Shown here: one piece after another, positions 20,364-21,078 of the stretch
Position numbering within the stretch: the stretch's first letter is position 1
How the letters are laid out: every line of letters starts with the position of its first letter
Source: Escherichia coli
Lineage (GTDB): Bacteria; Pseudomonadota; Gammaproteobacteria; Enterobacterales; Enterobacteriaceae
NCBI RefSeq assembly: GCF_030384885.1
Contig: NZ_CP128613.1
Reading direction: 5' to 3' (one strand)
DNA: 64,000 bases
Position numbers and translations under genes: made by a program
The notes under the pieces: generated by a model
Databases searched by the model: none
What the model was told of the DNA's origin: nothing
What the model saw: the letters and a program-made list of their open reading frames with translations, nothing else

Positions 20364-21078
20364 TCAGTATTCTGAATTGACGATCACCTCTTCACCAAAC
20401 GCACCCGCTTGTGGCAAGGGTTTGTAGGTAGAGTTGGAGGCGCGCAGAATGCGGATACCACGAGCGCCGACTTCGCGTGCGGCGGTAATATCGTTATCGG
20501 AATCGCCATAAAAAATTCGGATATTTTTATCCTGTAGCCATTGCGATTTTGTATTTTGACCTGGTTTATCGCCTGCAAAAATTACCGGATTCATGTTGGT
20601 GGCAGGAATGTGAAAATTATCCGCCAGCGTTTTTGACACCGTTTCTGTTTTGGTCGGGCTACGACCAGTCACAAAGAAGATCGCGTCACCGCGGCGTACA
20701 TGCATATCAATCAGCTGGCGAGCGACCTCTTTTGGAATGCTGAATTCATCCCAGCCATTGTTCATTTTTTCCCAGAACACAGGATTTTTCAGATAATCTT
20801 CGCTTTCTGGCGAGAAGGTTTTTTTGCCGCGCCAGAAGCCCGGACTGGAAAAAAGTACCGTGTCATCGATATCAAACCCCCACCGCCATTGGCGGACGCC
20901 CTGCGAGGCTATTTTCTATTTGTGTGACTGAAACCCAATGAACAGGAGCCTGCTCTGCAAGTCTGGCAACGTTAGTACCAGGATTAAGCGGTGAAGGTGA
21001 CGAGGCAAGGGCAACAGCGGAACTGTTTAGAGCGAACAATAAGCAAACGGCACTCAAAGCCTGTGTGATCTTGCGCAT
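20364..21078 (-). pseudogene. aphA: aphA (class B acid phosphatase) interrupted by a +1 frameshift in a C5 run (20877-20881)
   Basis: N-terminal part (ORF 20872..21078) ends ...RPPMAVGV-stop; C-terminal part continues in another frame (ORF 20364..20780). Removing one base from the run restores a continuous 237-aa AphA with the HAD motif FDIDDTV. Confidence 0.85.

Follow-up and report, generated by a model that had tools for sequence, protein, structure and literature searches.

The aphA locus in the stretch of Escherichia coli DNA analysed here (64,000 nucleotides, hereafter the window) raises the question of whether this strain has lost its periplasmic class B acid phosphatase/phosphotransferase gene, or whether the broken reading frame conceals a gene that is intact, switchable or still translated. 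Taken together, the comparisons below make it very probable that one extra G in aphA is a genuine and very recent loss-of-function mutation, in other words an ordinary case of aphA loss at the level of a strain.

Architecture of the broken aphA locus

In the window, aphA occupies positions 20364-21078 between tyrB and yjbQ, within the conserved gene order tyrB-aphA-yjbQ-yjbR-uvrA, and measures 715 nt instead of 714. The gene and all of its parts described here lie on the minus strand. Read on that strand, the sequence around the break is GGG CGT CCG CCA ATG GCG GTG GGG GTT TGA TAT CGA TGA CAC, in which a run of five G (G5; 20877-20881, C5 on the plus strand) is the site of a one-base insertion and is followed by a premature TGA in the original frame (GTT TGA T; 20872-20874). 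The open reading frame starting with the ATG at 21078 (MRKITQ...GRPPMAVGV*; 20872-21078 including the stop) ends at this TGA after 68 codons, and comprises the signal peptide (codons 1-25; 21004-21078), mature residues 1-42 and one aberrant Val. The extent of the signal peptide follows the crystal structure of mature AphA (1N8N), which aligns from precursor residue 26. The C-terminal 170 codons (F68-Y237, FDIDDTV...VNSEY) and the stop codon (together 20364-20876) are shifted into the +1 frame with respect to the start codon and run there without a signal peptide to the normal stop at 20364-20366. The codons for D69, I70, D71 and D72, which make up HAD motif I (20862-20873), are located directly downstream of the break and are absent from the N-terminal fragment. 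Start codons are available in the +1 frame only further inside the gene, the first being a GTG at 20780 and the next an ATG five codons beyond.

Alignment with aphA of three E. coli strains placed the lesion as one inserted G in the otherwise invariant GTGGGGTTTGAT. Over the whole gene the only indel falls at wild-type nt 198-201, which correspond to the last base of V66 and codon G67, and the wild-type tract is G4 (GTG GGG TTT GAT) in all E. coli compared. With one G removed, the window gene is identical at the DNA level to the 714-nt aphA of E. coli 2013C-4282, whose product is WP_001353538.1 (237 aa). Sequence and alignment therefore confirm, with exact coordinates, the earlier note on this DNA, which had described a +1 shift in the C5 run that splits aphA, an N-terminal part of 68 codons ending at a stop with the rest in another frame, a break just before the catalytic FDIDDTV, and a 237-aa protein restored by removal of one base. 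The break lies exactly where that description had placed it, as F68 opens the downstream frame and D69 comes next.

Family identity of the interrupted protein

The intact protein of 2013C-4282 (WP_001353538.1) matched the AphA equivalog model TIGR01672 with 420.9 bits (cutoff 195.8) over model positions 1-237, and differs at 3 residues from the mature K-12 enzyme in PDB 1N8N. Each part of the interrupted protein covers only a section of the same model: the N-terminal fragment reached 87.3 bits over positions 1-67, which is under the 195.8-bit cutoff, and the last 133 residues of the broken protein reached 237.9 bits over positions 105-237 only. In the numbering of the mature enzyme, taken from the 1N8N alignment, precursor residues D69 and D71 are Asp44 and Asp46; in AphA they form the nucleophile and acid/base pair of HAD motif I.

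The locus resembles E. coli AphA (TIGR01672, Pfam PF03767, PDB 1N8N) in that the match to the model is end to end once one G is removed. It differs from it in that the reading frame in the window breaks after codon 67. Members of the family combine a signal peptide, the motif I signature DxDD and a C-terminal Asp pair in one polypeptide, whereas no single open reading frame in the window unites the nucleophile Asp with both the signal peptide and the C-terminal Asp pair. By these sequence features, the locus belongs to the AphA class B acid phosphatase family as a pseudogene and not as a functional member.

Closest relatives and divergence of the window

The closest complete genome to the window is that of E. 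coli 2013C-4282 (NZ_CP027579.1), which was isolated from human stool in the USA, with approximately 100% identity across 24 kb. In the same 24-kb comparison the next-best complete genomes reached 98.6% and 98.4%, with most of the remainder near 95.8%. A base-by-base comparison over all 64 kb revealed 8 substitutions and 3 one-base indels between the window and 2013C-4282. All 8 substitutions are transitions, 6 of them synonymous, 1 intergenic and 1 non-synonymous (YjcF I372M). Such a pattern points to natural divergence under purifying selection rather than to error or simulation, and for this reason the window represents a distinct, very close relative of 2013C-4282 and not its copy. That the window might be NZ_CP027579.1 with artificial mutations was considered and rejected, with 7 of the 8 substitutions being silent or intergenic. 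Two further reasons against it are a public read set (L006) that shares the window base at 17897, and the presence of the extra aphA base itself in public read sets.

The segment at 10000-34000 is unusually divergent, being about 95.8% identical to most complete E. coli, and no more than three genomes reach 98.4%. Its proteins are common in draft assemblies, where they occur in hundreds of index blocks. The lineage of the window is under-represented among finished genomes, and the segment may belong to a divergent phylogroup or a cryptic clade, or may be a recombinant block.

The three indels deserve separate attention, as they account for 3 of the 11 differences between the window and its nearest genome, a high share that counts against reading the aphA lesion as gene loss. 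One of them is the G5 run in aphA. Another is an A8 run (16380-16387 in the window) upstream of the ssb start, which is A7 in 2013C-4282; an 86-mer containing the A8 state of the window is identical in 2,152 records, and many other complete E. coli are one base shorter. This A-run, in the divergent promoter region of ssb and uvrA, is a naturally polymorphic homopolymer of which both lengths are widespread in complete E. coli. The remaining indel, at window position 31409, is an extra A in 2013C-4282, where a DUF2713 gene is annotated as 'frameshifted', whereas the DUF2713-family gene of the window (31064-32068, minus strand, between dusA and zur) is an intact open reading frame of 334 codons. 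The window state at this position is common, at 100% identity, to 10 complete genomes. Since the two indel sites outside aphA show the common or the intact state, the window assembly does not appear to be indel-prone. The other 10 differences from 2013C-4282 break no gene, and the remark in the earlier note that the other genes of the window have their full length holds.

Distribution of the G5 allele

The G5 allele was absent from complete E. coli genomes. A 77-nt probe spanning it had no full-length 100% match in 5,426 complete E. coli genomes (0 of 5,426), and the best full-length matches in this set were 76/77 with one gap. Exact 32-mer scans likewise found no G5 in GTDB species representatives or JGI metagenome contigs. 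Searches at the protein level gave a different picture for one of the fragments. The 133-residue C-terminal fragment of the broken gene, starting at ATG, was present on 27 contigs in a large protein collection, and when these contigs were retrieved and their tract inspected, two carried G5. The 68-aa N-terminal fragment and the 138-aa C-terminal fragment starting at GTG were not found in that collection. Look-ups with TyrB and with the NadR-like protein encoded near aphA returned only relatives with intact aphA, both proteins being too widespread (888 and 946 index blocks, respectively) to single out the G5 sub-clone.

The two contigs with G5 are Logan assemblies, SRR35948513_82977 (4,458 nt) and SRR12517544_614 (2,872 nt). 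From end to end, each contig matches the window at 100% identity, and the aphA indel is its sole difference from 2013C-4282. In total, G5 has been seen in three sequences only, namely the window and these two contigs. The extra G consequently has read-level support at least twice, although one or both of the Logan runs may share the isolate of the window.

These contigs bear directly on the possibility that the extra base is a homopolymer error of sequencing or assembly, in which case the strain would truly be G4 with an intact aphA. One-base homopolymer indels are a classic long-read error, and both the absence of G5 from complete E. coli genomes, GTDB representatives and JGI metagenomes and the single-base difference within aphA from the nearest genome would fit such an origin. 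Against it stand the two assemblies of other SRA runs with the same G5 allele, the shortness of a run of 5 for a systematic consensus error, and the common or intact state of the window at the A8 and DUF2713 sites, by which the window looks accurate. The homopolymer error that the earlier note had offered as one explanation is now unlikely. The locus can serve as a useful example of a suspected homopolymer error that was checked against public read-set assemblies.

Near-identical drafts show the wild-type state: four assemblies (L014 and L016-L018), which differ from the window by 0-3 mismatches in stretches of about 6.2-6.4 kb, carry G4 and encode the 237-aa AphA. One of these (L014) has 0 mismatches to the window in 6.2 kb, yet it is G4. 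The exact wild-type AphA protein was found on 739 contigs. Because near-identical drafts are G4 and the wild-type protein is so common, G5 is understood as a rare, very young derived allele in a common clone. The locus shows what is looked for in a frameshift pseudogene, that is, an intact orthologue in the closest relatives (2013C-4282 and the four drafts) and a lesion consisting of a single indel. The comparison with aphA alleles of related strains that the earlier note had proposed as a check, in which close relatives proved to be G4 with an intact 237-aa AphA, and the recovery of G5 from two Logan sets together favour its reading of a real, strain-specific pseudogenisation.

Possible translational recoding at the break

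A genuine G5 allele could still be expressed. Ribosomal frameshifting to +1 might provide useful amounts of AphA, either when a tRNA-Gly slips from GGG to the overlapping GGG within G5, which would yield the wild-type protein, or by a P-site slip of the prfB type on GUU_U at the UGA, aided by GGGGG, which would yield an F68V protein. The mutant mRNA (GUG GGG GUU UGA U) does contain three ingredients of the prfB site, namely GGGGG, a U-rich slip site and UGA, and a small hairpin (CCGCC-AAU-GGCGG) is found directly upstream. The local RNA fold, on the other hand, is no more stable than that of shuffled controls (z = 0.80). Nothing special was detected at the break by an Rfam scan, a repeat search or RNA folding, and a structured recoding signal at this position was rejected on these results.

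The +1 signal of prfB is AGGGGG-NNN-CUU UGA C (PMC12421855). Like prfB, which encodes RF2, the aphA site has a GGGGG resembling a Shine-Dalgarno sequence (20877-20881) and an in-frame UGA at the slip site (20872-20874), and GGGGG, U-rich slip site and UGA all fall within 11 nt. Unlike prfB, it has no 3-nt spacer, the last G of the run being at the same time the first base of the P-site GUU; its slippery sequence is GUU_U and not CUU_U; and the base after UGA is U and not the C of the weak UGA C context. The interrupted frame is not conserved either, as all relatives are uninterrupted and the site exists only as a rare mutant allele, and the autoregulatory logic of prfB has no counterpart in aphA. 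At least three of the six defining features of prfB are thus lacking, and to judge from the bases at the break the mutation has created the resemblance by chance. Useful expression of AphA by frameshifting is therefore considered very unlikely. There is equally little reason to expect that the allele is leaky and translationally attenuated rather than null, with a low level of functional periplasmic AphA maintained by perfect +1 re-pairing of tRNA-Gly on G5 or by an RF2-sensitive slip at GUU_UGA beside a GGGGG that binds the anti-SD.

Other inactivated aphA alleles and the possibility of phase variation

Inactivated aphA alleles occur in other strains as well, and the window contributes a further case with its lesion at a new site. 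In E. coli XYEH3934 (L019) an IS3 element is inserted exactly after aphA codon 67, and in strains E200086 (L020), CUVM53 and 19SZHZ869Rt the gene is interrupted further downstream by IS1. One-base frameshifts were found in T6 (-1), A8 (-1 and +1) and A6 (-1) runs at nt 219-289 in Logan and NCBI assemblies (L006-L011), including an independent change from A8 to A9 in the own clone of the window (L006, DRR530033). In about 30 of the 5,426 complete genomes, no aphA match extended over 80% or more of the probe. In Salmonella, aphA is among the pseudogenes of the host-restricted Typhimurium DT2 (PMC3760250). Based on these cases, aphA is demonstrably dispensable and sporadically lost. The window allele resembles other inactivated enterobacterial alleles in being a sporadic loss of a dispensable periplasmic phosphatase gene, and differs from them in the site of its lesion, where G4 has become G5.

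A phase-variable contingency repeat, in which reversible slippage of the G tract would switch aphA on and off, is extremely unlikely: the break does lie in a mononucleotide run in the early part of the gene, and a single clone contains both the ON (G4) and the OFF (G5) state, but the tract is short (4 G in the wild type, 5 in the mutant), no complete genome carries G5, in an even sample of 5,416 records the full-length matches all have the same span of 76 nt, and the aphA frameshifts are scattered over the T6, A8 and A6 runs rather than concentrated at G4. Contingency loci usually have G/C tracts of about 7 or more, and to our knowledge none has been described with a G/C tract as short as 4. 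With only 4 G in the wild type and no length variation among genomes, the phase-variable tract envisaged in the earlier note is unsupported. Frameshifts scattered in this way point to slippage as a background process in a dispensable gene and not to a dedicated switch.

Predicted consequences of the probable loss-of-function mutation

The recent loss-of-function mutation would have arisen in a sub-clone of the 2013C-4282 lineage by the addition of one G to the G4 tract spanning V66 and G67, and we infer slipped-strand mispairing during replication as the most probable mechanism. Translation from the normal start would then produce the signal peptide, 42 residues of the mature protein and a single incorrect Val before it stops, and this 68-residue fragment would contain none of the catalytic Asp residues of the DDDD/HAD active site. 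As the first downstream start codons are the GTG at 20780 and the later ATG, a product of internal re-initiation would lack both an export signal and the nucleophile and would remain in the cytoplasm. The strain is expected to be without periplasmic class B acid phosphatase/phosphotransferase activity, a null phenotype that we infer from the reading frames.

A consensus scan identified a strong terminator-like hairpin just after the aphA stop codon (20336-20358, minus strand), whose stem of 10 pairs includes 7 G-C pairs and has a T-rich tail behind it. This element suggests that aphA may be transcribed alone, and because it directly follows the gene, a polar effect of the mutation on yjbQ is unlikely.

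Neighbouring genes and implications

An accessory pair of genes on the minus strand (22690-24248) is located between alr and tyrB, 1.6 kb from aphA; in other E. coli lineages (L007, L008 and L011) alr directly adjoins tyrB. One gene of the pair encodes a PnuC-family nicotinamide riboside transporter (TIGR01528, 77.8 bits, above the cutoff). The other encodes a NadR-like NMN adenylyltransferase/ribosylnicotinamide kinase that matches NadR positions 66-387, below the cutoff and without the N-terminal HTH domain. Two further, adjacent genes on the plus strand (25417-26037 and 26083-26610) lie between alr and dnaB and are without an assigned function. The product of the first has a sub-threshold match of 37 bits to the lipoprotein model NF007824, the product of the second matches no NCBIfam family, and neither has a Pfam match on record.

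Elsewhere in the window, an Rfam scan recovered the expected enterobacterial RNA elements intact, namely sraL (12423-12563), STnc430 (54827-54976) and the lysC lysine riboswitch (56871-57067). The same scan found two intact copies of the REP-derived naRNA4 (5099-5170 and 42993-43063).

For annotation, the locus should be treated as a frameshifted aphA pseudogene and not as two hypothetical open reading frames, and beyond the annotation of this strain the finding has little significance. The G5 allele is usable as a sub-clone marker within the 2013C-4282 lineage. With regard to physiology, a defect in the periplasmic dephosphorylation of nucleotides and NMN is predicted. In Salmonella, AphA converts NMN to nicotinamide riboside for uptake by PnuC, and Grose and colleagues reportedly found in 2005 that the class B enzyme of this organism is required to assimilate exogenous NMN. 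Loss of AphA could, in the same way, blunt the nearby salvage module formed by the pnuC and nadR-like genes, which the enzyme may feed.
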